Shown here: positions 4,635 through 55,701 of the stretch, in pieces
Position numbering within the stretch: position 1 is the first letter of the stretch
How the letters are laid out: the number at the start of each line of letters is the position of its first letter
From: a virus
IMG/VR virus record: IMGVR_UViG_3300009873_000015
Location: 4,847-68,846 of that record
Reading direction: 5' to 3' (one strand)
Length of the DNA: 64,000 nucleotides
Position numbers and translations under genes: made by a program
Notes under the pieces: generated by a model
The model's input: only the letters and a program-made list of their open reading frames with translations
Databases searched by the model: none
Told to the model about the DNA's origin: nothing

Positions 4635-6142
4635 TATTTTCCTCTGTAGTTTGTATGCCCTTTAGACATAGCACCAAAGAAACGTCTTTGTTTATCAGTT
4701 AGTGGATGTCCCTGAGCAGTTCCGTCATGTAATATTTCCCTTGCTTTATTTGGAGTAAGACCACCTTTTTTATAGGTCATTCCTCCATCTTCTTTGTTCC
4801 ACTTTCTTGCATTACGGGCAAAGTTAGCTCTTTTTCTTGTTGTAGGGTTTGAAGAATTTAACCCTCTCTGAATACACTCATCTGTTACTTTTCCACTACA
4901 ATAGTCAGTGAATTTACCTTTGTTTTCAGGTTTTATATGTATTCCCCCCTTCTTGTAGTTTCTGTATTTACCAGAGCCCAATCTTCCGAATTTCAAAAGT
5001 TCAGGTAGGAGTTTGCGTACAATCATCATACGGTCAATCTCATAACCACCTTTCTTCATCATACCTTTATCGTCTAACATTCCATCTCCCATATCCATTG
5101 CTGCAGGATTTGAGAACTTCTGGTATTCTTTCATTATAGTCTTCAAATTACCACCCTGTTGCATGTACAAATTATAAGGATTTGGTTGGAAGTCATCTAC
5201 TGGCATTGGATTCATTTGACCAAGCGCAGTTTGCTGCATCATATCATATTGATTCTGACGACCTCTTTCGATTGCTCCAGAGAGCCATCCAAGACCAGTA
5301 CGTGCAGCCTGCATACCTAATCCAATATCCTGCATAACCTGATATGGATTCTTTTTCTTTTTCTTGTCAGGTGGAGTGTTTACCCAGTTATACCAATCCA
5401 TAGCGGAACCTTCAAAGTCTTTTGGGCCTTCTATGATTCCTTTAGCAATACCTTCATGAACTCTATCCTTGTACTGTGGACCAGTTAAGGAGGTTTTATC
5501 GAGCAAAGGGGCATTAATACCCGGAATCACATCTTTTTCAGTAAGTATTTTTGGCATGAATGGTGAAATATCTATTCCAGATACAGCTTTCCCAGTATTA
5601 CTTTGTTCCCTTATCCATTTATCCATAGCCTGTTGCCAACTTTCGTAATCTGGAAAATCTTGTTCATTAGGCATAGTACCTCCGGATTGCATAACAATTC
5701 TACCCCCTTTCATCTTCATGGTTACATCAGAGTTATTTCTGGAGGCTAGTAATACACTTCCTTCTTGTTTGGTGTGTTTTGGACCATATCGAGAAAGGAA
5801 CCATTCGGGGTCAAGGTCCACTAAATTTCCTGTATAAGGGTCATTATACCAATATAACCCTTGTTCATTTTTAACATCACTTGGAAGTACTTCCCTTGGT
5901 AAAAACTTAGCTTTTGATGTACTAGGAGGTGATTTATAAGGTGTCCCATTTGGATTAACAAAAGGAACCATTGGGTCGCCAATATTTCTAGCGACATAAA
6001 CTTCATCTGAAGATAGATGATTATTTTCTCTAGCCAATCTTTGAGCCAATAGATTTGCGGCATCAATTTGAGCTTGTGTGGTATATTTTCCTCCTATTTG
6101 CATCTTACCACCACATTTCTTGCAGTTTTTAGGTCTATACAT
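4634..6142 (-). CDS. Structural or internal protein (502 aa) with N-terminal CxxC...C zinc-ribbon-like motif
   Basis: The N-terminus reads MYRPKNCKKCGGKMQIGG. There is a KKKKKNPY linker. The ORF is tightly packed against its neighbours. Confidence 0.5.
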   Translation of the reverse strand: MYRPKNCKKCGGKMQIGGKYTTQAQIDAANLLAQRLARENNHLSSDEVYVARNIGDPMVPFVNPNGTPYKSPPSTSKAKFLPREVLPSDVKNEQGLYWYNDPYTGNLVDLDPEWFLSRYGPKHTKQEGSVLLASRNNSDVTMKMKGGRIVMQSGGTMPNEQDFPDYESWQQAMDKWIREQSNTGKAVSGIDISPFMPKILTEKDVIPGINAPLLDKTSLTGPQYKDRVHEGIAKGIIEGPKDFEGSAMDWYNWVNTPPDKKKKKNPYQVMQDIGLGMQAARTGLGWLSGAIERGRQNQYDMMQQTALGQMNPMPVDDFQPNPYNLYMQQGGNLKTIMKEYQKFSNPAAMDMGDGMLDDKGMMKKGGYEIDRMMIVRKLLPELLKFGRLGSGKYRNYKKGGIHIKPENKGKFTDYCSGKVTDECIQRGLNSSNPTTRKRANFARNARKWNKEDGGMTYKKGGLTPNKAREILHDGTAQGHPLTDKQRRFFGAMSKGHTNYRGK

Positions 6143-15294: not shown

Positions 15295-15478
15295 TCACAT
15301 CGAACCATGAATCTTGCCCAATATAGCCAATTATTTCGTCCATAATCTGGACAGGAACAAAGTATCCCTGTGGTGGAGCCTGTTGTAATGCAGCCTGTGG
15401 TGCAGATGGCTCCTGTTTTGCTACTTTAAGTTTTCTTTCCATACCACAAATATATGGTGAACTTTCCCTCGGTTCCAA
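15197..15478 (-). CDS. Hypothetical protein (93 aa)
   Basis: ORF; partly overlaps the HTH gene. Confidence 0.35.
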   Translation of the reverse strand: MEPRESSPYICGMERKLKVAKQEPSAPQAALQQAPPQGYFVPVQIMDEIIGYIGQDSWFDVNDFINRIRSSVQPVYPKNQVKNETENQTAPVN

Positions 15479-15499
15479 ATAAATTATGTTAAAATTCTG

Positions 15500-15910
15500 T
15501 TAACGGGTTATCTTACCTTCGCTAAAAAGCTTGTCGTATCTGGCTTGTAGCTTTTTCATCTCCTTGTTCATTTTTACCTTAATTCGCTTCTGCTTTGCTT
15601 TCTTTTTCTTTTCAGTTCGCTTCTTTACAGTTTTATTCTTTACAGTTTTATTTTCTCCCTTAGGGGTTTTAAAGAACTCAGAGAGTGACTTTTCTTGATG
15701 CTCCTTTTCATGACAACTTCTACATAAAGTTGTAAGGTACTTATCCGCAATCTCCCAAGGAGCCTTTCCCGGAGGATACCAGAGATGATGCACTTCTGTT
15801 CCTCTCTTACCACATTTGGTGCAGCAGTTTTGGTCTCTTAGCAAAATCTTGCTCCTTTTTCTTTTCCACTCAGGTCTGAGTAGAAGCTGTCTGTATTCTT
15901 CCTTGTTCAT
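15500..15910 (-). mobile_element. HNH endonuclease (136 aa)
   Basis: CCTKCG...EVHHLWYPPG...LCRSCHEKEH. This is the Cys-box plus HH...N...H pattern of the HNH family. Confidence 0.65.
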
Positions 15911-16279
15911 AGTAACTCCCTCCGTTAACGAACCCTAAAAAAACTGGCCAGATAGCCAGTCACAAAATTAGCTGCCCAACCGTAGCCTCAGCCCTTTTGT
16001 TTGATTTTATTACTAATACCCATTCCCACTCCACCGTGGGTTTTTGATGCATGCATCCTTGGGCTACCAGCCCCGTGTCATATCCTTGTTTCTCCTGACG
16101 GGGTTTGCAGAAATAAAAAAGGGCTCCCAGATTGCTCCAGAAGCCCTAACCCTGCTACGAGTTTAAACACAAATATGAAAATCTTTAACAGTCCTTCGTA
16201 GCAGGAAGCTTTCTGTTAGCACAAATATAGGGTGCCAGACAGCCCTGCTCCAAATTTAATTTGTTAAAAGATTGTTAAG

Positions 16280-16350
16280 TGGGATAGGAGATACTCGAAA
16301 TCTCGTGCCTACGTTTTACAGACGTTGCTTAGTGCCCTGCTATCTATCCC
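16280..16350 (-). tRNA. tRNA-like, anticodon GTA (Tyr-like), 71 nt, atypical D-arm
   Basis: Perfect 7-bp acceptor stem GGGATAG/CTATCCC. T-arm GAGAT-TTCGAGT-ATCTC. Anticodon loop CTGTAAA on a 4-bp stem. The D-arm is poor. Confidence 0.45.
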
Positions 16351-16352
16351 AT

Positions 16353-16438
16353 TGGTTGGAAGGGTGGGATTCGAACCCACAAACTCCGAAGAGGGTGAGG
16401 TTACAGCTCACCTGCTTTAGCCGTTTGCATACCTGCCA
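16353..16438 (-). tRNA. tRNA-Tyr (GTA), type II with long variable arm, CCA encoded
   Basis: T-arm GTGGG-TTCGAAT-CCCAC. Anticodon stem-loop GTGAG-CTGTAAC-CTCAC. Variable arm CTC-TTCG-GAG. Confidence 0.65.
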
Positions 16439-16443
16439 ATGTG

Positions 16444-16529
16444 CGGAGAACAAGAGAGTCGAACTCTCACTACCCGAAGGTAGACCTACTTAGCAGGTAG
16501 GTGCAGCAAACCGTATCTGCCTATTCTCC
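16444..16529 (-). tRNA. tRNA-Ser (GCT), type II
   Basis: Acceptor GGAGAAT/GTTCTCC. Anticodon stem-loop CCTAC-CTGCTAA-GTAGG. Long variable arm. T-arm GAGAG-TTCGACT-CTCTT. Confidence 0.75.
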
Positions 16530-16590
16530 AATCGTAGTTTTTAGGTCATATCGAGGGACCGGAGTTACGAGCTCCAAAACTCGGGGTATG

Positions 16591-16687
16591 CGGTAGGCAG
16601 AGGACCCGACCCCCATTCAGTAGTGCTTGCTACCGAAGCCACGTTTTCAAGACGTGTCGCATCTCCAATGACGCTGCTTTACCTACC
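16591..16687 (-). tRNA. tRNA-like, possibly Ser (TGA), with non-canonical T-loop and extended D region
   Basis: Acceptor-like pairing GGTAGGT/GCCTACC. Perfect anticodon stem-loop CACGT-CTTGAAA-ACGTG. T-loop variant GTCGGGT has G at position 58. The region is GC-rich within an AT-rich array. Confidence 0.35.
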
Positions 16688-16693
16688 TTGTTG

Positions 16694-16767
16694 TGCTCTG
16701 AGTAGAATTCGAATCTACAAGAAACTCATTTTGAGTGAGTTATGTCTCCCAGTTGCATCATCAGAGC
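16694..16767 (-). tRNA. tRNA, anticodon CAA (Leu codon UUG) but short type-I variable loop
   Basis: Acceptor GCTCTGA/TCAGAGC. Anticodon stem-loop ACTCA-CTCAAAA-TGAGT. T-arm GTAGA-TTCGAAT-TCTAC. Variable loop 5 nt. Confidence 0.6.
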
Positions 16768-16770
16768 ATG

Positions 16771-16843
16771 TGCCTCCAACCAGATTCGAACTGGTAAACT
16801 GGGTGTTTAAGACCCATACGGTTCCCGATTACGTCATGAAGGC
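16771..16843 (-). tRNA. tRNA, anticodon TAA (Leu codon UUA), type-I variable loop
   Basis: Acceptor GCCTTCA/TGGAGGC. Anticodon stem-loop TGGGT-CTTAAAC-ACCCA. T-arm ACCAG-TTCGAAT-CTGGT. Confidence 0.6.
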
Positions 16844-16847
16844 ATGG

Positions 16848-16921
16848 TAGCTCCTAAGAGATTCGAACTCTTACTTACAACATCCTAAGTGTTGTGCCTC
16901 TCCCAGTTGGGCTAAGGAGCC
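16848..16921 (-). tRNA. tRNA, anticodon TAG (Leu codon CUA), type-I variable loop; CCA encoded
   Basis: Acceptor GGCTCCT/AGGAGCT. Anticodon stem-loop CAACA-CTTAGGA-TGTTG. T-arm AAGAG-TTCGAAT-CTCTT. Confidence 0.6.
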
Positions 16922-16949
16922 AAATAAAAACCCAGCTACATGAGCTGGG
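16922..16949 (-). terminator. Intrinsic terminator (minus strand) closing a mini-gene cassette
   Basis: Perfect 7-bp hairpin CCCAGCT(5-nt loop)AGCTGGG followed on the minus strand by TTTTTATTT. Confidence 0.55.
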
Positions 16950-16974
16950 TTTAAACATTTTGGTCAAGATATAA

Positions 16975-17040
16975 TTATCCCAGCTCTATATCCTTTGATA
17001 AGAGTGATAAACTGGAATAATATGAATTGATTCTTTTCAT
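16975..17040 (-). CDS. Leaderless mini-ORF (21 aa, MKRINSYYSSLSLLSKDIELG) between promoter and terminator
   Basis: ATG lies 5 nt after the -7 box TATCTTTG. Stop TAA is immediately before the terminator hairpin. Confidence 0.3.
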   Translation of the reverse strand: MKRINSYYSSLSLLSKDIELG

Positions 17041-17045
17041 GCTGC

Positions 17046-17077
17046 AAAGATACAACATAATGTAAGGGATTCCAAAT
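17046..17077 (-). promoter_or_regulatory. Bacteroidetes-type promoter (TTTG, 20-nt spacer, TATCTTTG), minus strand
   Basis: Spacing and motifs match the -33 TTTG / -7 TAnnTTTG sigma-A consensus of Bacteroidetes. Nine similar promoter-like sites were found in this window. Confidence 0.5.
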
Positions 17078-17180
17078 ATTTCTTCAATTATTTTTGTGCG
17101 TCGAAGCCAGTAATTGTGGTAACACCTTCACCAAGGTCTGCATTTGCACAACAAATATACGGAATTTCTGGGATTCTACC

Positions 17181-17214
17181 AAATAAAAAACCTACTGGCA
17201 GGGTTATCAGTAGG
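17181..17214 (-). terminator. Intrinsic terminator (minus strand) downstream of tRNA-Ala
   Basis: Hairpin CCTACTG(10-nt loop)CAGTAGG followed by TTTTTTATTT on the minus strand. Confidence 0.55.
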
Positions 17215-17220
17215 TTAAAT

Positions 17221-17293
17221 GTGGAGGATACCAGACTCGAACCGGTGACTCCTGCGTGCAAGGCAAGTGTGTTAGCCATCTATACTAATCCCC
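17221..17293 (-). tRNA. tRNA-Ala (TGC)
   Basis: GGGGGAT...CTTGCACGCAGGAG...GGTTCGAGTC...ATCCTCCA. This closely resembles bacterial tRNA-Ala. Confidence 0.75.
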
Positions 17294-17296
17294 CAT

Positions 17297-17728
17297 TTAG
17301 GTGGGTTTAAAGACATCAAGGAAGTCATCAAGCTTCAGAAGGGCCAAATCAGAGGTTTTGTCATCTCCTCCTCTTACTCTACGGTATCTGTCCCAATGTT
17401 GTATCAGATAGGCCCTGAGGTCACCTGTTGGGCAGTAGTAGATTCTTTTCAGAACGTAAAACCAAGTATCAGCTTTTGAGGTTGCTATACCCGAAGCTTT
17501 ACCTCTGCTCCTGTACTCAATGGCTACGTTTCCAGTTTTGTCCCACATCTGGTCATGCTTGACCTCTGCAGTCCTTTGTCTTCCGTCTCGGGTAGTGTAT
17601 GAAATATCGTACCTACCATCATCGTTTGTTTGGATGTCAGTGCATCCCTCCTCCTTCAGGAACTCAATCACCTGATTTACAGATGCTTCTGATTCCGGAA
17701 GGTCTTCCTTGAAGTTGTATTTTCCCAT
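17297..17728 (-). CDS. PD-(D/E)XK-like nuclease-fold protein (about 143 aa; track ORF trimmed to first ATG clear of tRNA-Ile)
   Basis: GRYDISYT...RTAEVKHD gives a D...E-x-K arrangement. The longer track ORF overlaps the tRNA-Ile gene. Confidence 0.35.
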   Translation of the reverse strand: MGKYNFKEDLPESEASVNQVIEFLKEEGCTDIQTNDDGRYDISYTTRDGRQRTAEVKHDQMWDKTGNVAIEYRSRGKASGIATSKADTWFYVLKRIYYCPTGDLRAYLIQHWDRYRRVRGGDDKTSDLALLKLDDFLDVFKPT

Positions 17729-17805
17729 GTTGGCAAGCTGGATTCCGAGACCAGATGACTGCCGTATCAGAGCAGCATAATAACCTTTATATGACCTGCC
17801 AATAA

Positions 17806-17880
17806 GTACTCTCAACTGGACTCGAACCAGTACATCGCCAAGGTATAAGCTTGGTGCTGTCACCATTTAGCTATGAGAGC
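17806..17880 (-). tRNA. tRNA-Ile (TAT), decodes AUA
   Basis: Anticodon stem-loop CCAAG-CTTATAC-CTTGG. T-arm ACTGG-TTCGAGT-CCAGT. Acceptor GCTCTCA/TGAGAGT. Confidence 0.65.
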
Positions 17881-17885
17881 AAGAG

Positions 17886-17959
17886 CGGAACCTACGGGAG
17901 TCGAACCCGCACCGCACGGCGTGACAAGCCGGCATTGTAAACCATTCAACCAAGGCTCC
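17886..17959 (-). tRNA. tRNA-Asp (GTC)
   Basis: Anticodon loop TTGTCAC. T-arm GCGGG-TTCGACT-CCCGT. Acceptor GGAGCCT/AGGTTCC. Confidence 0.7.
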
Positions 17960-17966
17960 GTATGTG

Positions 17967-18041
17967 TACCGCATAGGGGACTCGAACCCCTGATGATTGC
18001 AGTGAAAGTGCAATGACTTAAACCAACTTGTCCAATGCGGC
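17967..18041 (-). tRNA. tRNA-Glu (TTC)
   Basis: Anticodon stem-loop TTGCA-CTTTCAC-TGCAA. T-arm AGGGG-TTCGAGT-CCCCT. Confidence 0.7.
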
Positions 18042-18104
18042 AGCTTCTGTATGTGTCTTACCCCTTGGCAGTGTCACTTAAAGCCTAACAGAGAGGCTTC
18101 CGGG

Positions 18105-18176
18105 AGCAGTAGAAGAATTTCGAAATCTCAGCCTTCTCCTTGGCAAGGAGACGCTCTACCTTTGAGCTACTACTGC
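18105..18176 (-). tRNA. tRNA-Gly (GCC), T-stem carries a T-T mismatch next to the loop
   Basis: Acceptor GCAGTAG/CTACTGC with discriminator T. D-arm TAGCTCAAAGGTAGAGC. Anticodon stem-loop TCTCC-TTGCCAA-GGAGA. T-loop TTCGAAA. Confidence 0.6.
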
Positions 18177-18272
18177 TTGAAGTACACGTTGGTCACCAGT
18201 TATTTCCAGTTAGGGGTGACTCCACGAAACTGGCCAGATGTTAGCAGGACGTGTACCTTGCTAACCCACGAG

Positions 18273-18343
18273 AGCGGAACATCGGATTCGAACCGACACC
18301 AGAGACTTGGAAGGACCCTGAACTACCATTATTCTAATCCCGC
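18273..18343 (-). tRNA. tRNA-Gly (TCC)
   Basis: GCGGGAT...CTTCCAA loop...GTCGG-TTCGAAT-CCGAT...GTTCCGCT. Discriminator U as in Gly. Confidence 0.65.
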
Positions 18344-18437
18344 ATGGAGCAAGTCTGGCTTCTACTGAAGCTTTAGGTACCTCTCTTGGCAGAGGGGCAC
18401 TATGCTGCCACATAACAACCTCCAACTTGCCGAGAGG

Positions 18438-18911
18438 TTAACGATATAATTCTGGGTGTCTACATACGTGGTCAGCAGCTTTTGTGGCCAACTGTTCTCC
18501 ACTTTTGAACGATGCATTCATGTTCAGACCTTTTACCCATCCTTTAAGAGCTTGTACTACCGGAGTAGATTTTGTCTTCTTAATATTAGAGTAGTCAAAC
18601 TCAAGAGCTTCTATTGCTACTGGAATTTCTTCAGTAATCAATAATGCTGCATCAACTGTTCTTACACCTTCTGTGTATAAACGTGAATACAAGTCTCTTA
18701 TCTTTGGTACTTCATCTTTCAGGTAGACAAAATGTGCACCTCTATGACCATAACGATAACATATACATGTTATGTAACGTGTAATCTTACCGTAGTCTTG
18801 AGAGTCAGTACCTACATAGATTCTCAGATTAGGCCAGAGGTTAATCTGTTCTAATGTGTGTTCAACTACGTTGACTTTCTCACCAGTATTGGTTTTGAAG
18901 TACTTTTCCAT
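18438..18911 (-). CDS. Hypothetical protein (157 aa), possibly RNase-H-like fold (GTDS motif)
   Basis: N-terminal LRIYVGTDSQDYG. Promoter immediately upstream at 18916-18947. Confidence 0.35.
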   Translation of the reverse strand: MEKYFKTNTGEKVNVVEHTLEQINLWPNLRIYVGTDSQDYGKITRYITCICYRYGHRGAHFVYLKDEVPKIRDLYSRLYTEGVRTVDAALLITEEIPVAIEALEFDYSNIKKTKSTPVVQALKGWVKGLNMNASFKSGEQLATKAADHVCRHPELYR

Positions 18912-18915
18912 TCTG

Positions 18916-18947
18916 CAAATATAATACCTAACTGACCCAAAACCAAA
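18916..18947 (-). promoter_or_regulatory. Bacteroidetes-type promoter (TTTG, 20-nt spacer, TATATTTG) with ATG 4 nt downstream (leaderless)
   Basis: Minus strand reads AAATTTGG...TATATTTGcagaATG. Confidence 0.5.
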
Positions 18948-18953
18948 TTTATG

Positions 18954-19027
18954 TTGCGTATATCAGATTCGAACTGATGGATGGCACCTTATGAGAGTGC
19001 TGCCTTTGTCCACTTGGCTAATACGCA
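18954..19027 (-). tRNA. tRNA with CAT anticodon (Met or Ile2)
   Basis: Anticodon stem-loop GCACT-CTCATAA-GGTGC. T-arm ATCAG-TTCGAAT-CTGAT. Acceptor TGCGTAT/ATACGCA. Confidence 0.7.
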
Positions 19028-19033
19028 ATATAG

Positions 19034-19115
19034 AAGCGAGGGCAGGATTCGAACCTGCGTCCTTTACGGCATAGGCTTATGAGACCTCGGAGCTGGGCCA
19101 CTACTCGACCTCGCA
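19034..19115 (-). tRNA. tRNA, anticodon CAT, with unusual long variable region (82 nt)
   Basis: T-arm GCAGG-TTCGAAT-CCTGC. 3-bp D-stem with 11-nt loop. Anticodon loop CTCATAA. About 13-nt variable region. Acceptor has a mismatch at 1-72. Confidence 0.45.
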
Positions 19116-19116
19116 G

Positions 19117-19200
19117 CGTTTGGTATAGGATTCGAACCTATGATGGCTTAAAGCGTCAGCTTAACAGGCTGGACCATTCGACCTCTATGGCAAACCAAAC
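19117..19200 (-). tRNA. tRNA, anticodon GTT (Asn-type loop CTGTTAA) with long variable arm (84 nt)
   Basis: Acceptor GTTTGGT/ACCAAAC. T-arm ATAGG-TTCGAAT-CCTAT. Variable hairpin GCTT-TAA-AGC. Confidence 0.45.
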
Positions 19201-19245
19201 TTAAATAGTTTTGTACTACACGGAGAAATTATTAAAACTCACCTG

Positions 19246-19318
19246 TAGACCCAGAGGAGTACGATTCCCCACTAACTGTTTAGAAGACAGTTTTGCTATC
19301 CATTTACAACATGGGTCC
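19246..19318 (-). tRNA. tRNA-Arg (TCT) with non-canonical T-loop (ATCGTAC)
   Basis: Acceptor GGACCCA/TGGGTCT. Perfect anticodon stem-loop ACTGT-CTTCTAA-ACAGT. T-stem GGGGA/TCCTC. Confidence 0.5.
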
Positions 19319-19326
19319 ATTTCTTG

Positions 19327-19399
19327 TACACCTACTCCGATTCGAACGGAGGTTTCCACCTTGTAAGGATGGCACACTAAACCACTGTGTTATAGGTGC
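19327..19399 (-). tRNA. tRNA-Val (TAC)
   Basis: Anticodon loop CTTACAA. T-arm CTCCG-TTCGAAT-CGGAG. Acceptor GCACCTA/TAGGTGT. Confidence 0.7.
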
Positions 19400-19404
19400 A
19401 TATG

Positions 19405-19478
19405 TGCTCCCAGAGTGGTTCGAACACTCATCCTTCCGGTTAAGAGCCGGTAGCTACTTCCACATGAGCTTTGAGAGC
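19405..19478 (-). tRNA. tRNA-Lys (CTT)
   Basis: Anticodon loop CTCTTAA. T-arm GAGTG-TTCGAAC-CACTC. Its 5' part is overlapped by the 3' end of the HNH ORF. Confidence 0.6.
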
Positions 19479-19811
19479 ATTTAATCGTGCATGTTCTTCT
19501 TTATGACAGTTGGAACAAAGTAAAGTGCACTTGTCTACTTCTTTCTTTATTTTATTCCATGATGCTGTTTGTTTTGTCCCACTTATACCAAAATCTTTTT
19601 CATTTGGGTCGTTGTGATGAAACTCAAGAGCACCTATATACTTATTATAACCACAGTGTTCACATTTTCCCCCCTTGTGAGCAACTGCCATTTCTTTGAG
19701 CTTCTTACGTCTCTTGTCAACAGCTTCAACTACACACTTCTTGCACCTTGTATATCCGTCACTTCTTGTTGTGAACTCTGTTACTCCGTGCTTTTTACAA
19801 GTCTTTAACAT
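19440..19811 (-). mobile_element. HNH homing endonuclease (likely start MLKTC at about 19811); its 3' end overlaps tRNA-Lys(CTT)
   Basis: CEHCGY...EFHHNDPNEKDF...LLCSNCHKEEH. Upstream promoter-like TTTG, 20-nt spacer, TATCTTGG at 19833-19864. Confidence 0.65.
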
Positions 19812-19832
19812 TTGATTACTATAATTTAGTAA

Positions 19833-19864
19833 TCCAAGATACAAACTTTTTGTGAAACTACCAA
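19833..19864 (-). promoter_or_regulatory. Bacteroidetes-type promoter upstream of HNH gene
   Basis: Minus strand reads AAATAAATTTGG, 20-nt spacer, TATCTTGG. Confidence 0.4.
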
Positions 19865-19903
19865 ATTTATTTCAGCTCCATCTTTGAGCTTCGAGAGCTT
19901 GAG

Positions 19904-19976
19904 TACCGCCCGAGGGATTCGAACCCTCTATCCTCAGCTTAAAAGGCTGCAGCTTGTCCACATAAGCTCCGACGGT
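19904..19976 (-). tRNA. tRNA-Lys (TTT)
   Basis: Anticodon loop CTTTTAA. D-stem AGCT/AGCT. T-arm GAGGG-TTCGAAT-CCCTC. Confidence 0.65.
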
Positions 19977-20012
19977 AAATAAAAAACCCGGAGCTCTTGT
20001 GGAGGCTCCGGG
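19977..20012 (-). terminator. Intrinsic terminator (minus strand)
   Basis: Hairpin CCCGGAGC / GCTCCGGG followed by TTTTTTATTT on the minus strand. Confidence 0.55.
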
Positions 20013-20037
20013 CTTCAATTATTTGATAATCAACAAC

Positions 20038-20133
20038 TTAAATTAGTTCAGTATCAGACAATAGAATCCCGGAGCCATCTTTCTCAATGCCTCTCGCCAT
20101 CCCATTATCCACTACTATATATGAACTGTACAT
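20038..20133 (-). CDS. Mini-ORF (31 aa, MYSSYIVVDNGMARGIEKDGSGILLSDTELI) in a promoter-terminator cassette
   Basis: Lies between promoter 20165-20196 and terminator 19977-20012. Confidence 0.3.
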   Translation of the reverse strand: MYSSYIVVDNGMARGIEKDGSGILLSDTELI

Positions 20134-20144
20134 TGGTTGCAGTA

Positions 20145-20501
20145 TTAAATGTTTGTTTGTAATGCAAATATACGACTAAAATCTGGAATTTCCAAATTTA
20201 TTTTTGAATTTTCTTCTGGAGGCATTGTTGTAGTGCATGTAACGGACGTAGTTACATGCTCTTTCATAGCCTCTTGAAACAATTCCATTCCTCTTCTACC
20301 TGTCATTAAGGTAATCATTCTTGAGGATGGAATCTGATTAGTCTGCCATAGCTCCTGTAGAACCTGCTTCAATCTCTCCTCCGTCATCAAATGACGGTGT
20401 GGATTGTTCATCTGGTCGTACAAGGATTGTCTGCTGCTGGACTGTAAACTCGTTGTAAATGGGGAATCCCCATGCATTGCGGAGAACATTTCCATTTTCA
20501 T
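20145..20501 (-). CDS. Hypothetical ORF (118 aa) overlapping the upstream ORF in another frame; possible frameshifted 3' portion
   Basis: Its 164-nt overlap with 20338-20703 suggests either a frameshift or pseudogenisation. Confidence 0.3.
   Translation of the reverse strand: MKMEMFSAMHGDSPFTTSLQSSSRQSLYDQMNNPHRHLMTEERLKQVLQELWQTNQIPSSRMITLMTGRRGMELFQEAMKEHVTTSVTCTTTMPPEENSKINLEIPDFSRIFALQTNI
20165..20196 (-). promoter_or_regulatory. Bacteroidetes-type promoter (TTTG, 20-nt spacer, TATATTTG)
   Basis: Minus strand reads AAATAAATTTGGaaattccagattttagtcgTATATTTG. Confidence 0.5.
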
Positions 20502-20667
20502 CCCTTTTAAACTTATGACGAAATGTTTGTTTACCAGCCAAATAGGCTTTCAGGTGCTTGGTATGAAAATTTATTCCATCCCTTCCCTCTTTCTCCAGAA
20601 TTTCCTTGTAGTTCTGAGCAGTAATTGTTACTCCCAGATACTTTCTTGTGTACTTCTGCTTTTCCAT
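20338..20667 (-). CDS. Hypothetical protein (start MEKQKY at 20667, leaderless with promoter 20673-20704)
   Basis: Minus strand reads TATATTTGcagatATG. The track ORF is extended upstream by a TTG alternative start. Confidence 0.4.
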   Translation of the reverse strand: MEKQKYTRKYLGVTITAQNYKEILEKEGRDGINFHTKHLKAYLAGKQTFRHKFKRDENGNVLRNAWGFPIYNEFTVQQQTILVRPDEQSTPSFDDGGEIEAGSTGAMAD

Positions 20668-20672
20668 ATCTG

Positions 20673-20704
20673 CAAATATATGGTGCAGATATGGTAAAAC
20701 CAAA
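20673..20704 (-). promoter_or_regulatory. Bacteroidetes-type promoter (TTTG, 20-nt spacer, TATATTTG)
   Basis: Minus strand reads AAATAAATTTGGttttaccatatctgcaccaTATATTTG. Confidence 0.5.
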
Positions 20705-20750
20705 TTTATTTTTGGTACTCCGTGACAGATTCGAACTTTCTAAGTCCAGT
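20704..20750 (-). pseudogene. Orphan tRNA 3' fragment (T-arm plus acceptor 3' strand) resembling the 3' half of the adjacent tRNA-Arg
   Basis: GAAAGTTCGAATCTGTCACGGAGTACC versus tRNA-Arg GAGAGTTCGAATCTTTCACGGGGTACA. No matching 5' half is present. Confidence 0.4.
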
Positions 20751-21273
20751 ATTGATTTTGCCTTTCAATAGCTTGTTTTATTGACTCTATGGGAAGACCC
20801 TTATATTCTGTACCCCGTGAAAGATTCGAACTCTCAAAATCTCCTGATTCGTATTCAGGTGCTGTATCCGGTTTAGCTAACGGGGCATTATGTCTTCTTC
20901 TATGACAATTTGGACAGAGAGGAACACATTTGTCCACCTCTTCCATTATCTTCTTCATAGAAGATTCTTTAAGGTTTGAAAGATTATAGTCTTTCGTAGA
21001 TGGGTCTAAATGGTGAAACTCACACATATATGGCTCATCTTTAAATGACATTTCACAATCTGTACAAGAAAGTGTTCTTTTGAAGTCCATAAATCTTTCC
21101 TTATAAGATTTGTTATTCTTCTTAGACTTCTTTATATAGTATTGAACATTCTTGTTATAATGTTCTTTTATCTTCTTCCTTCTGCAATCTTTGCAGTATC
21201 CAACTTTTCGGTTTGCTCTTTGGTCAAATTCAGATTCTGGTTTAACCAGTTTACATTCAGTACATTGTCTCAT
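20740..21273 (-). mobile_element. HNH homing endonuclease (start MRQCTECK at 21273); C-terminal tail reads through tRNA-Arg
   Basis: CKDCRRKK...CEFHHLDPSTKD...PLCPNCHRRRHN. Leaderless promoter TATATTTGtttcATG. Confidence 0.65.
20811..20886 (-). tRNA. tRNA-Arg (ACG)
   Basis: Anticodon stem-loop CCTGA-ATACGAA-TCAGG. T-arm GAGAG-TTCGAAT-CTTTC. Lies inside the 3' tail of the HNH ORF. Confidence 0.7.
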
Positions 21274-21277
21274 GAAA

Positions 21278-21309
21278 CAAATATACGAAAAAGCTACGAA
21301 CCCACCAAA
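21278..21309 (-). promoter_or_regulatory. Bacteroidetes-type promoter (TTTG, 20-nt spacer, TATATTTG) flanked by a 10-bp inverted repeat
   Basis: Inverted repeat GCTACGAACC...GGTTCGTAGC (21293-21330) brackets the -33 element. Confidence 0.45.
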
Positions 21310-21365
21310 TTTATTTTCATGGTTCGTAGCCACAGATTCTCATCCATTGAACTAACGGAGCATGG

Positions 21366-21439
21366 GGTGATATACGAGATTCGAACTCGCACTACCTGAC
21401 TCACAATCAGGCGTGTTAAACCATTACACTAATACCACC
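21366..21439 (-). tRNA. tRNA-His (GTG)
   Basis: Anticodon stem-loop CCTGA-TTGTGAG-TCAGG. Discriminator C. T-arm GCGAG-TTCGAAT-CTCGT. Confidence 0.7.
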
Positions 21440-21446
21440 ATGTTGG

Positions 21447-21517
21447 ATGTCCTACTTGGATTCGAACCAAGAACCTTTGAGTCAGAGTCAAAGATGTTAC
21501 CGTTACACCATAAGACA
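21447..21517 (-). tRNA. tRNA-Gln (CTG)
   Basis: Anticodon stem-loop TTTGA-CTCTGAC-TCAAA. T-arm CTTGG-TTCGAAT-CCAAG. Confidence 0.65.
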
Positions 21518-21523
21518 ATATGG

Positions 21524-21594
21524 ATGCCTCCGTGGGACTCGAACCCACAACCACCACGCTCAAAACGTGAGATGTTGCATTACACCAAGAGGCA
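21524..21594 (-). tRNA. tRNA-Gln (TTG)
   Basis: Anticodon stem-loop TCACG-TTTTGAG-CGTGG. T-arm GTGGG-TTCGAGT-CCCAC. Confidence 0.65.
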
Positions 21595-21630
21595 GTTTTG
21601 GCCAGTTATAATTTTTATAGTTGGCCATTG

Positions 21631-21704
21631 CACGGATGGAAGGACTCGAACCCTCGCTTACTTGGTTTTGGAGACCAAAGCTCTACCAACTGAGCTACAC
21701 CCGT
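21631..21704 (-). tRNA. tRNA-Trp (CCA)
   Basis: D-arm TAGCTCAGTTGGTAGAGC. Anticodon stem-loop TTGGT-CTCCAAA-ACCAA. T-arm GAGGG-TTCGAGT-CCTTC. Confidence 0.75.
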
Positions 21705-21710
21705 GTGTGG

Positions 21711-21782
21711 TGGTGATGGAGGATTCCGAGACCCCGACGCCAAGCTCTTCAGGCTTGCGCTCTACCGCTGAGCTACATCACC
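21711..21782 (-). tRNA. tRNA-Phe (GAA) with non-canonical T-loop (G58)
   Basis: Acceptor GGTGATG/CATCACC. D-arm TAGCTCAGCGGTAGAGC. Anticodon stem-loop CAAGC-CTGAAGA-GCTTG. T-region GGGG-TCTCGGAAT-CCTC. Confidence 0.65.
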
Positions 21783-21861
21783 ATATGCCGTTTTTGTTTA
21801 AGGAGTGCTAACTCCCCTGCCTTATGGGAGGAGCAGGTGGTTATTTCAAACGGAACCAGAG

Positions 21862-21936
21862 AGTCGGTAGTCAGATTCGAACTGACGATTGTGTGGTTTT
21901 GCAGACCAGTGCCTTTGTCCACTCAGCCATACCGAC
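21862..21936 (-). tRNA. tRNA-Cys (GCA)
   Basis: Anticodon loop CTGCAAA. T-arm GTCAG-TTCGAAT-CTGAC. Acceptor GTCGGTA/TACCGAC. Confidence 0.7.
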
Positions 21937-21946
21937 ATATTATTGG

Positions 21947-22021
21947 AGCCTATGACAAGAGTCGAACTTGCAACCCCCCGCTTACAAGGCGGGAGCTCTG
22001 CCAAAATTGAGCTACATAGGC
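21947..22021 (-). tRNA. tRNA-Thr (TGT), CCA encoded
   Basis: Anticodon stem-loop CCCGC-CTTGTAA-GCGGG. T-arm GCAAG-TTCGACT-CTTGT. Confidence 0.7.
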
Positions 22022-22029
22022 ATGTTATG

Positions 22030-22102
22030 CTCCAGAGGTCGGACTCGAACCAACATATGCTTCATTACAAGTGAAGTCCTGTACCAATTGAGGCACTCCG
22101 GA
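22030..22102 (-). tRNA. tRNA-Thr (TGT), second divergent copy
   Basis: Anticodon stem-loop CTTCA-CTTGTAA-TGAAG. T-arm GTTGG-TTCGAGT-CCGAC. Confidence 0.6.
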
Positions 22103-22107
22103 ATCAG

Positions 22108-22194
22108 TCGGGTAAACAGGACTCGAACCTGCATTGAGCTATTAACTACTTCTCGTTTCCAAAACGAGTCGGCTTCCATTGCCTTCATTACCCG
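22108..22194 (-). tRNA. tRNA, anticodon TGG (Pro-type) with a 19-nt variable region (87 nt)
   Basis: Perfect anticodon stem-loop CTCGT-TTTGGAA-ACGAG. T-arm GCAGG-TTCGAGT-CCTGT. Acceptor CGGGTAA/TTACCCG. Confidence 0.45.
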
Positions 22195-22201
22195 AAATAT
22201 G

Positions 22202-22273
22202 TCGAGTAGAATAGATTCGAACTATCACGTTCCTGCTCCCAAAGCAGGGGGGCTACCGTTACCCTACTACTCG
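22202..22273 (-). tRNA. tRNA-Pro (TGG)
   Basis: Anticodon stem-loop CCTGC-TTTGGGA-GCAGG. T-arm GATAG-TTCGAAT-CTATT. Confidence 0.7.
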
Positions 22274-22275
22274 AA

Positions 22276-22306
22276 ATAAAAAAAGCCCTCAGTAGAAACT
22301 GAAGGC
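22276..22306 (-). terminator. Intrinsic terminator (minus strand) separating the upstream mini-gene cassette from the tRNA array
   Basis: Hairpin GCCTTCAG...CTGAGGGC followed by TTTTTTTATTT on the minus strand. Confidence 0.5.
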
Positions 22307-22339
22307 TGCTTTTGATTACTTTATCAAAAATGGACTGTG

Positions 22340-22432
22340 TTATAAGTTAAGTACACACACAGAGCAGCCTTCACAAGTGCCAAAGGGACACTGTGGACAG
22401 GTAAACCATGTATGTGTGCGTTGTGCTTTCAT
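22340..22432 (-). CDS. Leaderless Cys-rich mini-ORF (30 aa, MKAQRTHTWFTCPQCPFGTCEGCSVCVLNL); possible zinc-ribbon micro-protein
   Basis: Two CxxC motifs. ATG is 4 nt after the -7 box. The terminator 22276-22306 follows. Confidence 0.35.
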   Translation of the reverse strand: MKAQRTHTWFTCPQCPFGTCEGCSVCVLNL

Positions 22433-22435
22433 AAT

Positions 22436-22468
22436 GCAAATATACAACAATATTTTACAGATTCCAAA
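22436..22468 (-). promoter_or_regulatory. Bacteroidetes-type promoter (TTTG, 21-nt spacer, TATATTTG)
   Basis: Minus strand reads AAATAAATTTGGaatctgtaaaatattgttgTATATTTGcattATG. Confidence 0.5.
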
Positions 22469-22481
22469 TTTATTTTTGAAA

Positions 22482-22544
22482 TTACTTTTTGGTGCCACCG
22501 CATCCGCAGCCACCACCTTTCTTACAAGTCAGAATCTTTTTCAT
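22482..22544 (-). CDS. Mini-ORF (20 aa, MKKILTCKKGGGCGCGGTKK), Cys/Gly-rich
   Basis: Downstream of promoter-like site 22553-22584. Runs straight into the next promoter. Confidence 0.3.
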   Translation of the reverse strand: MKKILTCKKGGGCGCGGTKK

Positions 22545-22552
22545 TTACAAGG

Positions 22553-22584
22553 TTAATATACGATATTATTTTGAATCTACCAAA
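22553..22584 (-). promoter_or_regulatory. Promoter-like site (TTTG, 20-nt spacer, TATATTAA)
   Basis: The -33 element and spacing are good. The -7 box is weaker. Confidence 0.35.
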
Positions 22585-22655
22585 TTTAATTAAAAAAGGG
22601 AGCGTAGACACGCCCCCTGAAACTTCTCGGAGAACCAACAACCGAGGTTTTAAAA

Positions 22656-23768
22656 TTATGGTAATATTGGGTGAACCACTGCTCCCTCAAAGTTTACCAC
22701 GATAGATTTTGATGTTGCATTGATAAATGAGGACTGGAATTCCAGAACCAAATTCTGAGCTGACATACGAATTACGTAGCCATAAAGCTGAGTATATTGG
22801 TCTGCACCTGCCTGTGGAATATCAATGTAATTAATTGATTTTAAGTCTTTTGTACCAATCAGTTCACCTGCTAATACGCAAGTTACAGGGATATTACCCA
22901 TAGGAATTGTGAACTTTCTGTTGGCAGTTTGGTAAGTGCCAAAGTTTACAGTATAGGTAATTGAACCTCTGAACTCTATAGTTCCATCAAAACGGTATCT
23001 GTACTGAGGTGCACCAGATGAGTAGGTTACGTTAGGGTTACCTGTAGCAACCAGAGTTATGTTTCTCCATACTCCATCGAAACATGGACGAACCACTTGG
23101 ATAGATGGGTTAGTAGATACAATGTATGGGTCAACCAGAGTACCTGTACCAGAGACTGTCACACCTACACCTTGTTGTACAATAGTTTCACTACCGTCTG
23201 GTGCAGAGTATGCTGTCTTCAGTTTTCCGTCACTACCAATAGTAAGCTGGTTCCCACTGTCTCCTGAGATTAAAGTTGTAGGTACGACATCTAACTCTAG
23301 TTTTTCGTCACCACCCGGATTGAGAATGTTTTTTGTCAGAAATTCCCCTGTTTCGACCTTTTCATCTAAATAATTAGATGTTGTGTCATTGGATGTCACC
23401 TTAGCATTTACGTCTACAGGTGTACCACCTTCTACAGCATTGATTACCAGCTTTCTATCACATCCTGAACCAGTGATGGAGAAGGAGATATTCAAACCTT
23501 CCTCCAGCTTATCAAACAGGTGCTCAGGACATGTATCTTGCCCGTCAATCAGAACTTTACCTTTATCTTCCTGCAAATCACATATTGCAGCTTCGATTTT
23601 ACCCATTACATCCTTACCGTTCTCGCCATTAGCTACATCAAGACACGGTAAAGGATTACCATCATATGTTGTACAACCAAAGGTGCTAGGGTTTAAACAC
23701 CCACAGTTATCATATGGGTCTGTACATGGGTCATTTTGTACACATGGGTCTGTTTCGTTACAAGCCAT
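22656..23768 (-). CDS. Tail fibre or receptor-binding-like protein (370 aa)
   Basis: Cys-rich N-terminus and a G/T/S/N-rich beta-rich body. Sits in the tail-fibre block. Confidence 0.45.
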   Translation of the reverse strand: MACNETDPCVQNDPCTDPYDNCGCLNPSTFGCTTYDGNPLPCLDVANGENGKDVMGKIEAAICDLQEDKGKVLIDGQDTCPEHLFDKLEEGLNISFSITGSGCDRKLVINAVEGGTPVDVNAKVTSNDTTSNYLDEKVETGEFLTKNILNPGGDEKLELDVVPTTLISGDSGNQLTIGSDGKLKTAYSAPDGSETIVQQGVGVTVSGTGTLVDPYIVSTNPSIQVVRPCFDGVWRNITLVATGNPNVTYSSGAPQYRYRFDGTIEFRGSITYTVNFGTYQTANRKFTIPMGNIPVTCVLAGELIGTKDLKSINYIDIPQAGADQYTQLYGYVIRMSAQNLVLEFQSSFINATSKSIVVNFEGAVVHPILP

Positions 23769-55616: not shown

Positions 55617-55687
55617 TGTCCTTTGGTGTAATGGTAGCACAACTGGTTTTGGTCCAGTTAGTTGAGGTTCGAATCCTTAAGGGACAA
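55617..55687 (+). tRNA. tRNA-Gln (TTG), the only plus-strand tRNA, isolated in the accessory region
   Basis: TGTCCTTTGGTGTAATGGTAGCACAACTGGTTTTGGTCCAGT...GAGGTTCGAATCCTTAAGGGACAA. Anticodon loop TTTTGGT. T-loop TTCGAAT. Confidence 0.65.
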
Positions 55688-55701
55688 CTAAACTATTTAA
55701 T

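Follow-up and report, generated by a model that had tools for sequence, protein, structure and literature searches.

The 64,000-nucleotide stretch analyzed here (the window; positions 4,847 to 68,846 of the IMG/VR virus record IMGVR_UViG_3300009873_000015) contains a large array of transfer RNA (tRNA) genes, among which short open reading frames (ORFs) stand behind promoters of their own. The window appears to derive from an uncultured phage that is distantly crAss-like; the link is given only by the portal protein, which is 22 to 26% identical to its counterparts in crAss-like phages of Bacteroides, Flavobacterium, and Cellulophaga. A preliminary description of this DNA had reported four such units, each composed of a promoter, a mini-ORF, and in three cases an intrinsic terminator, and had considered micro-proteins, anti-defense peptides, or noncoding RNAs with incidental ORFs as their products. 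The four ORFs and their peptides were as it had given them. Here, we designate these units A (22482-22544), B (22340-22432), C (20038-20133), and E (16975-17040), and we present evidence that B, C, and E resemble leader-peptide attenuators placed ahead of blocks of tRNA genes. No megablast, tblastn, or blastn match to the region, to a 421-amino-acid (aa) neighbor protein, or to cassette E was found among 50,697 phage records.

With default settings, ARAGORN predicted 30 tRNA genes in an array at 16279-22273 (minus strand), and the cassettes all lie on the minus strand within this array. One further gene, tRNA-Ser(tga) at 16590-16683 (minus strand), has a long variable arm; it escaped both the default ARAGORN run and Rfam and was recovered with the threshold set to 90%, which brings the total to 31. 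The array falls into three blocks, all on the minus strand. Block B (20810-22273) encodes Pro, Pro, Thr, Thr, Cys, Phe, Trp, Gln(ttg), Gln(ctg), and His tRNAs at 21363-22273 and tRNA-Arg(acg) at 20810-20886; an inserted HNH gene with its own promoter separates His from Arg(acg). Block C (17221-19976) encodes Lys(ttt), Lys(ctt), Val, Arg(tct), Asn, Met, Met, Gly(tcc), Gly(gcc), Glu, Asp, Ile(tat), and Ala tRNAs. It is interrupted by three protein ORFs and is closed by a terminator at 17216-17185. Block E (16279-16921) encodes Leu(tag), Leu(taa), Leu(caa), Ser(tga), Ser(gct), Tyr, and Tyr tRNAs and is followed by an end-of-array terminator at 16147-16120.

The Bacteroidetes-type promoter consensus TTTG-N20-TAnnTTTG occurs nine times in the window, compared with 0.46 occurrences expected from shuffled sequences (none of 100 shuffles reached nine), and seven of the nine copies are within the tRNA region. 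Four promoters of this class precede protein genes (15447-15479, 18916-18947, 20673-20704, and 21278-21309, minus strand), and two of the protein ORFs that interrupt block C have one. At the protein genes the −33 element is extended (AAATAAATTTGG), and the ATG always lies 4 to 5 nucleotides (nt) past the −7 box. Because all protein genes with this promoter start at that distance, leaderless mRNAs seem to be the rule for the phage genes of this class, judging from their promoter geometry. The layout noted for the cassettes in the preliminary description thus goes beyond chance, since the same promoter-to-ATG geometry also heads the protein genes behind 18947, 20704, 21309, and 15479.

Cassettes B, C, and E share a more elaborate organization in which a promoter, a leader ORF containing a segment that we call region 2, and a terminator follow one another immediately upstream of a tRNA block. 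In cassette B (minus strand), an exact match to the promoter consensus (22437-22468; TTTG-N20-TATATTTG) is followed, 4 nt past the −7 box, by the ATG of a 30-codon ORF (22340-22432; MKAQRTHTWFTCPQCPFGTCEGCSVCVLNL) whose codons 4 to 20 (about 22373-22423) we term regulatory. Region 2 (22362-22374; GUGAAGGCUGCUC) has two alternative partners, namely the regulatory codons themselves (region 1) or the 5′ arm of the terminator (GCAGCCUUCA). The terminator (22274-22307) consists of a stem at 22307-22284 and a T-run at 22283-22274, and it adjoins tRNA-Pro at 22273. Cassette C (minus strand) also has an exactly matching promoter (20165-20196), followed by a 5′ untranslated region (UTR) of ~27 nt (20134-20160) and a 31-codon ORF (20038-20133; MYSSYIVVDNGMARGIEKDGSGILLSDTELI) with regulatory codons 6 to 19 (about 20078-20118). 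Its region 2 (20057-20077; core, GGCUCCGGG) is the complement of the terminator 5′ arm CCCGGAGCC, and the terminator (19977-20016; stem at 20016-19983, then a T-run) adjoins tRNA-Lys(ttt) at 19976. In cassette E (minus strand), the promoter (17045-17076; TTTG-N20-TATCTTTG) is again an exact match, with the ATG 4 nt past the −7 box. The 21-codon ORF (16975-17040; MKRINSYYSSLSLLSKDIELG) has regulatory codons 6 to 15 (16996-17025) that are all Ser, Tyr, or Leu, and region 2 (16978-16986; GAGCUGGGA), which lies immediately before the stop codon, is the complement of the terminator 5′ arm CCCAGCU. The terminator (16922-16952; stem at 16952-16928, then a T-run) adjoins tRNA-Leu(tag) at 16921. The three strong intrinsic terminators noted earlier (stems 16952-16928, 20016-19983, and 22307-22284) were thus recovered. 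Their T-runs, as the preliminary description had overlooked, meet the first tRNAs at 22274/22273, 19977/19976, and 16922/16921 and leave no space for an intervening promoter; therefore, these first tRNAs would be transcribed only by read-through of the terminators.

The proposed leaderless nature of the transcripts held for only some of the cassettes. Of the four, three have an exact consensus promoter (17045-17076, 20165-20196, and 22437-22468), while that of 22482-22544 is degenerate, and the short distance of 4 to 5 nt between −7 box and ATG applies to 16975-17040 and 22340-22432 (4 nt each) but not to 20038-20133 (31 nt) or 22482-22544 (11 nt). The transcripts of leaders B and E are therefore probably leaderless, given the usual distance from the −7 box to the start site in Bacteroidetes promoters, and in relatives of the phage the ATG of B- and E-type leaders lies 4 to 7 nt past the −7 box. 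Leader C is not leaderless, because a 5′ UTR of ~27 nt follows its promoter, and this long spacing is kept in relatives. A longer leader C that would begin in frame at the leaderless position was considered and rejected; such an extension is unconserved, and the related contig L001 has a stop codon there.

To compare the leader codons with the downstream tRNAs, we applied strict wobble rules and calculated P values from random codon strings drawn from the phage codon usage. The first 19 codons of leader B (peptide, MKAQRTHTWFTCPQCPFGTCEGC...) sample all nine of the anticodons of the block that follows; 13 of the 19 codons are read by block B tRNAs (P = 1e-5 for this count and P = 5.5e-5 for the nine anticodons), and none is read by block E. 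Leader C (peptide, MYSSYIVVDNGMARGIEKDGSG...) samples 11 of the 12 anticodons of its own block (P = 2.6e-3), with 13 of 18 codons read by block C and none by block B. Leader E (peptide, MKRINSYYSSLSLLS...), which precedes three Leu, two Ser, and two Tyr tRNAs, samples four of six own-block anticodons; tRNAs of block E decode 8 of its 17 codons (P = 7e-4), and those of block B decode none of them. The three TCA codons in this leader correspond to the added tRNA-Ser(tga). The match extends to isoacceptors: the Arg codon is CGY in all Arg-containing B leaders and AGA in eight of eight C leaders, and tRNA-Arg(acg) sits in block B and tRNA-Arg(tct) in block C. When relatives were pooled, own-block codons accounted for 73%, 77%, and 70% of the codons before region 2 in B, C, and E leaders, respectively, compared to a background of 26%, 56%, and 18%.

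The RNA of each leader can form mutually exclusive structures. In the minimum-energy folds of the three window leaders (z-scores, −3.6, −5.4, and −3.95), a large hairpin within the ORF stands beside the terminator, and in all three the regulatory codons pair with the antiterminator segment (region 1:2). Region 2 is the 3′ half of this ORF hairpin and is also complementary to the terminator 5′ arm; the pairs are UGAAGGCUGC with GCAGCCUUCA in B, GGCUCCGGG with CCCGGAGCC in C, and GAGCUGGG with CCCAGCUC in E. The complement of the terminator 5′ arm has a z-score of −3.0 to −5.7 in the three window leaders, whereas no comparable complement exists at four ordinary terminators nearby (z, −0.8 to +0.9).

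To extend these observations, related contigs were collected from IMG/VR and metagenomes through proteins neighboring the array. In total, 24 leaders of types B, C, and E came from ten contigs, the window among them; L019 and L020 supplied further leaders. In all 24 leaders, the ATG lies at a fixed distance from the promoter and the frame stays open to a stop codon near region 2, so that the conservation of reading frames named as a check in the preliminary description was found for B, C, and E. Insertions and deletions within the coding part mostly come in multiples of three. A terminator with hairpin and T-run (−12 to −24 kcal/mol) lies 19 to 53 nt past the stop codon in 24 of 24 leaders, and region 2 is the complement of the terminator 5′ arm in each of them (−8.6 to −28 kcal/mol), with 13 duplexes stronger than those of all 200 shuffles. 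MAFFT alignments of the terminators are partly out of register, and we therefore added duplex predictions for each sequence. In the MAFFT alignment of type C leaders, the antiterminator helix is 91.7% paired, and at four of its nine pairs both partners have changed; the helix has a covariation score of 0.365 compared with 0.164 for shuffles (none of 500 reached it), and slid controls score far lower. RNAalifold, given no hint, returned the antiterminator helix as the type C consensus, with 6 of 12 pairs compensatory, and the region 1:2 hairpin as the consensus for types B and E. In type C, the covariation is three-way: the segments read GGCUCCGGG / CCCGGAGCC / GCUCCGGG in the window, GGCUCUGG / CCAGAGCC / GCUCUGGG in L001, and GCCUUGGGG / CCCCAAGGC / GCUUUGGGG in L011.

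The relatives also differ in their leader peptides and tRNA contents. The order of the regulatory residues is shuffled among genomes while their composition is kept (IVVDNGMARGIEKD, MIVDRINGAEK, and MIVRNILGADEK, for example), and each C leader contains the full set of ten block C amino acids despite the shuffled order. The residues encoded by region 2 vary (GSG, ALG, ASG, APG, and GSR), with the RNA pairing maintained by compensation. In B leaders, the number and spacing of Cys residues vary; that of L003 has one Cys, and that of L010 reads QCPTGQCEGLCTC. Several contigs serve as natural experiments. In L004 and L005, tRNA-Cys is the only tRNA gene downstream, and their homologous leader (MIINKNIYEPCCAQCQIEGGCIICIKK) keeps five Cys codons but has lost the Thr-His-Thr-Trp-Phe stretch. 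L003 has tRNA blocks B and E without C, and it has leaders B and E without C. L014 and L021 have no tRNAs and none of the B, C, or E leaders.

We next modeled ribosome positions by masking a footprint (A site −15 to +13 nt) at each codon; this is thermodynamic folding, not proof of switching. At equilibrium, a ribosome on the regulatory codons lowers the terminator probability to about 0 in 13 of 24 leaders, and the probability is about 0.9 after the ribosome moves on. As equilibrium folding works in only these 13 leaders, it was rejected as sole proof of switching, and transcripts cut before the terminator 3′ arm were analyzed for this reason. In the cut transcripts, capture of the 5′ arm stands at about 0.5 to 0.9 while the ribosome occupies the regulatory codons. 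Once the ribosome is placed on region 2, capture drops to roughly 0 to 0.4 in about 19 of 24 leaders; the B leaders of the window, L004, and L013 and the C leader of the window stay at about 0.5 or more, and the E leader of L001 barely shifts. In this model, the boundary of the change in capture coincides with the end of the regulatory stretch.

Given this anatomy, the covarying alternative pairings, and the agreement of the leader codons with the tRNAs that follow, cassettes B, C, and E are likely ribosome-mediated (leader-peptide) transcription attenuators, each of which would gate a phage tRNA block. Beyond these features, we infer that the leaders are translated, that ribosome and polymerase are coupled, and which way the response runs. 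Host RNA polymerase would initiate at the Bacteroidetes-type promoter, and a ribosome would start on the short leader ORF, for B and E right at the 5′ end of the transcript. The mini-ORFs are probably translated, and the first ~18 codons of each leader would sample the codons that tRNAs of the block behind it decode. With all sampled tRNAs plentiful, the ribosome would pass over region 2 to the stop codon; region 2 would be covered or re-paired with region 1, the terminator hairpin would form, and transcription would end a few bases before the first tRNA. If any sampled tRNA were scarce, the ribosome would stall on region 1, and the freed region 2 would form an antiterminator by pairing with the 5′ arm of the terminator. 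Transcription would then proceed into the tRNA block, from which RNase P would release the tRNAs. The predicted outcome is negative feedback, that is, demand-driven and self-limiting expression of each tRNA block, with the leader acting as an OR gate over 6 to 12 tRNA species. It is rather likely that such a leader works as a phage-encoded, multiplexed sensor of tRNA supply, in which shortage of any listed tRNA stalls the ribosome and de-represses the whole block. Possible causes of shortage would be a codon-usage mismatch with the host, host shut-off, or anticodon-nuclease defenses of the host.

Alternatively, the mini-ORFs of B, C, and E could encode functional micro-proteins, such as zinc-ribbon-like CxxC proteins or anti-defense peptides, in which case the hairpins would simply end small genes and the tRNAs would arise from incidental read-through. 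The ORFs do stay open in all relatives, a CPQC...EGC core is recognizable in the B-type peptides of several genomes, and cassette A (below) does behave as a micro-protein gene. We nonetheless regard this explanation as very improbable for B, C, and E and have rejected it for them, as the codon set is kept while the residue order is shuffled, and the residues encoded by region 2 change while the RNA pairing is compensated. The zinc ribbon suggested earlier for 22340-22432 failed on the same comparison, in that the CxxC pairs are unconserved and the L003 B leader has a single Cys. The suggested anti-defense role fared no better in view of the shuffled order and of a codon set that tracks the downstream tRNA genes. 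Peptide function also cannot explain why the choice between CGY and AGA for Arg follows the downstream isoacceptor. In addition, the leaders vanish with the tRNAs in L014 and L021 and are reduced to Cys codons in L004 and L005, and ordinary terminators lack an antiterminator complement. The opposite explanation, that the RNAs are untranslated and serve as 5′ leaders of tRNA precursors, small noncoding RNAs, or riboswitch-like sensors with incidental ORFs, draws on the strong and conserved secondary structure (z-scores, −3.6 to −5.4) and on the covarying helices; elsewhere among bacteria, an attenuator RNA set free by termination, such as rnTrpL, can have trans activity (PMC6614838). It is hardly probable for B, C, and E, given that 24 of 24 leaders have an ATG at a fixed promoter distance and an open frame to a stop near region 2, that the coding part tolerates mostly indels of multiples of three, and that codon composition fits the downstream anticodons. 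Thus, the earlier reading of these units as noncoding RNAs with incidental ORFs does not hold for B, C, and E, whose frame and start at the predicted transcription start are conserved. No Rfam family, T-box included, reaches the gathering score in the leaders: a scan of 15500-23000 at E ≤ 1 returned only tRNAs and chance-level matches below that score, with no T-box and no specifier structure, and a known RNA family for the leaders was rejected accordingly.

A third explanation accepts that the leaders are translated and matched to tRNAs but holds that the response is reversed or that they have another purpose than shortage-induced read-through, such as a timing device that permits tRNA transcription only while translation is active, or processing or stability elements. 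The direction of regulation is indeed an inferred part of the attenuator model. Moreover, equilibrium folding of truncated transcripts without a ribosome often shows an already paired terminator 5′ arm (0.4 to 1.0), and lack of translation might also allow read-through in some leaders. On the other hand, the geometry is classical, in that region 1 carries the regulatory codons and region 2 falls before or at the stop codon, and the folding model restores the terminator once the ribosome is past the regulatory codons. Because the leader ORF ends 19 to 53 nt before the terminator, a ribosome could not block the hairpin in the manner of pyrBI. We therefore consider a reversed response or another purpose unlikely.

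Several observations weigh against the attenuator model. Transcription start sites, leader translation, and termination are predicted from sequence, and tight transcription-translation coupling and leaderless initiation in a Bacteroidetes host are assumed. The HNH and other ORFs in blocks B and C have their own promoters (18947, 20704, and 21309); therefore, many tRNAs could be transcribed without passing an attenuator, which amounts to a partial bypass. Each tRNA species is represented by only 1 to 5 codons in the leaders, far below the his or pheA leaders, and the sensitivity to one single tRNA could be low. The correspondence between codons and tRNAs is also incomplete: tRNA-Lys(ctt) and tRNA-Leu(caa) are in the window, yet AAG and TTG are absent from the regulatory stretch, and ATT codons occur in the window leaders, yet tRNA-Ile(gat) was undetected. 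The leaders are homologous rather than independent samples, so the pooled codon statistics overcount. L007 lacks the Val, Arg(tct), and Asn tRNAs, yet its leader is the same as that of L002; the loss is probably a recent deletion. At the RNA level, the antiterminator duplexes of the L003 and L010 B leaders are weak (z, −1.5 and −1.2). Furthermore, the equilibrium folds of 9 of 24 leaders still favor the terminator while a ribosome occupies region 1, and those of L004 and L005 favor the antiterminator even when no ribosome is present. Since equilibrium folding is not unanimous, the attenuator model needs kinetic, co-transcriptional capture of the terminator 5′ arm.

Cassette A is of a different kind. 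Micro-ORF A (22482-22544, minus strand; MKKILTCKKGGGCGCGGTKK) encodes a Gly/Cys peptide, has no terminator of its own in the window, and is not an attenuator. Its degenerate promoter (about 22549-22586) has TATATTAA as −7 box, and the ATG is 11 nt further on. With this promoter in A and the ~27-nt 5′ UTR in C, leaderless transcripts are plausible for two of the four cassettes (B and E). The GCGCGG core of micro-ORF A is conserved in all relatives, and in the tRNA-less L014 (12985-13123) the micro-ORF forms a stand-alone unit of promoter, leaderless ORF, and terminator. We also observed the GCGCGG micro-ORF fused in frame to leader B in L013 (15469-15609) and to the C terminus of leader C in L011 (15317-15424). 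Cassette A is plausibly a separate conserved micro-protein gene, as this conservation suggests, and it is here that the micro-protein reading of the preliminary description survives. The changes within the GCGCGG core of A are synonymous.

Upstream of leader E lies a further promoter (17152-17183), absent from the preliminary description, with a 19-codon ORF, designated D (17084-17143, minus strand; MQTLVKVLPQLLASTHKNN; whole unit, 17084-17183). ORF D was rejected as a fifth cassette, being the deletion remnant of a ~150-aa gene that is kept in L001 (14843-15315). The frame of its ATG differs from the ancestral frame, and ADLGEGVTTITGFDA is readable in another frame. The promoter of ORF D is still directed into leader E, which gives leader E tandem promoters.

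Additional features of the array were recorded. The HNH endonuclease genes (19440-19844 and 20740-21274 in the window, minus strand; 13270-13836 in L002; 16288-16815 in L003) carry the TTTG-N20-TAnnTTTG promoter and read into or through the next tRNA, namely Lys(ctt) at 19404-19478 and Arg(acg) at 20810-20886. In relatives, the apparent 5′ part of a tRNA sits ahead of such an HNH gene. This arrangement suggests that HNH genes were inserted into tRNA genes or that tRNA genes were duplicated. In L001, a suppressor-type tRNA with anticodon CTA (15320-15439; called Pyl by ARAGORN) stands directly behind its own consensus promoter, without a leader; going by its anticodon, it may serve amber read-through or recoding in that phage. 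Three minus-strand tRNAs are unusually long for their identity (Pro at 22107-22194, 88 nt; Met at 19033-19115, 83 nt; Asn at 19116-19200, 85 nt). A long variable arm is normal for bacterial tRNA-Leu, but the three Leu tRNAs here are short (74 to 77 nt). An extra tRNA-Gln(ttg) stands alone at 55617-55688 on the plus strand, far from the array.

Codon-usage compensation, continued translation after host degradation, and escape from tRNA-cleaving defenses have been proposed as reasons why phages carry tRNA arrays. If the attenuator model is correct, B, C, and E would be the first ribosome-mediated attenuators known to control tRNA genes and the first evidence of on-demand expression of a phage tRNA array; full-text literature searches, with incomplete journal coverage, returned no report of leader-peptide attenuation of tRNA genes. 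The phage would gauge decoding speed codon by codon and make tRNAs only on demand, and leader-peptide attenuation would extend from amino-acid metabolism to the tRNA pool, and to a virus. For annotation, the codons of a short ORF beside tRNA genes should be compared with the neighboring anticodons before it is called a micro-protein. Being compact and natural, the leaders might also be of use as engineering parts where a response to the supply of particular tRNAs is wanted.

Among known systems, the tRNA arrays of T5 and crAss001 resemble that of the window in having promoters, HNH endonuclease genes, and short ORFs among the tRNA genes. However, the small ORFs of T5 encode ordinary-looking proteins of 27 to 96 aa that do not match the downstream tRNAs, with no annotated terminator between, and no leader-plus-terminator unit was found in the crAss001 array. 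The attenuator system looks clade specific so far. T-box riboswitches sense tRNA status and choose between terminator and antiterminator upstream of translation-related genes, as B, C, and E would; a T-box, however, binds one uncharged tRNA directly without translation, whereas B, C, and E have a conserved ORF that is predicted to be translated.

Closer parallels come from mycobacteria, where leaderless polycysteine short ORFs are cysteine-responsive attenuators (bioRxiv 10.1101/834739). As proposed for the cassettes, a leaderless sensory first cistron is involved, codon-specific pausing alters downstream RNA structure, and several loci respond to one signal. The mycobacterial ORFs relieve sequestration of a ribosome-binding site, a translational mechanism, and respond to one amino acid, while B, C, and E combine an intrinsic terminator and antiterminator with mixed codons and would control noncoding tRNA genes.

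The ilv leader achieves multi-input sensing through Leu, Ile, and Val codons, and multivalent leaders of the ilv type are, for their multi-input sensing, among the nearest analogues of B, C, and E. The trp, his, leu, thr, ilvGMEDA, and pheA leaders are classical ribosome-mediated transcription attenuators of amino-acid operons (PMC1183508). Like trp-type attenuators, cassettes B, C, and E have a short leader ORF right behind the promoter, an intrinsic terminator ahead of the structural genes, and mutually exclusive 1:2, 2:3, and 3:4 pairings (principle, PMC1183508). All structural hallmarks of the classical attenuators are present, but the genes behind them are not those of amino-acid biosynthesis, transport, or aminoacyl-tRNA synthetases: trp-type attenuators control biosynthetic enzymes and synthetases, whereas B, C, and E would control tRNA genes and the inserted HNH genes, and do so in a phage. 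The cassettes further differ from the trp type in listing up to 12 tRNA species with 1 to 5 codons each and in that two of the three leaders are apparently on leaderless mRNAs. The sensed signal would be the supply of tRNA rather than of an amino acid, and "cognate" here refers to the tRNA itself rather than to an amino-acid pathway, which is a new sense of the term.

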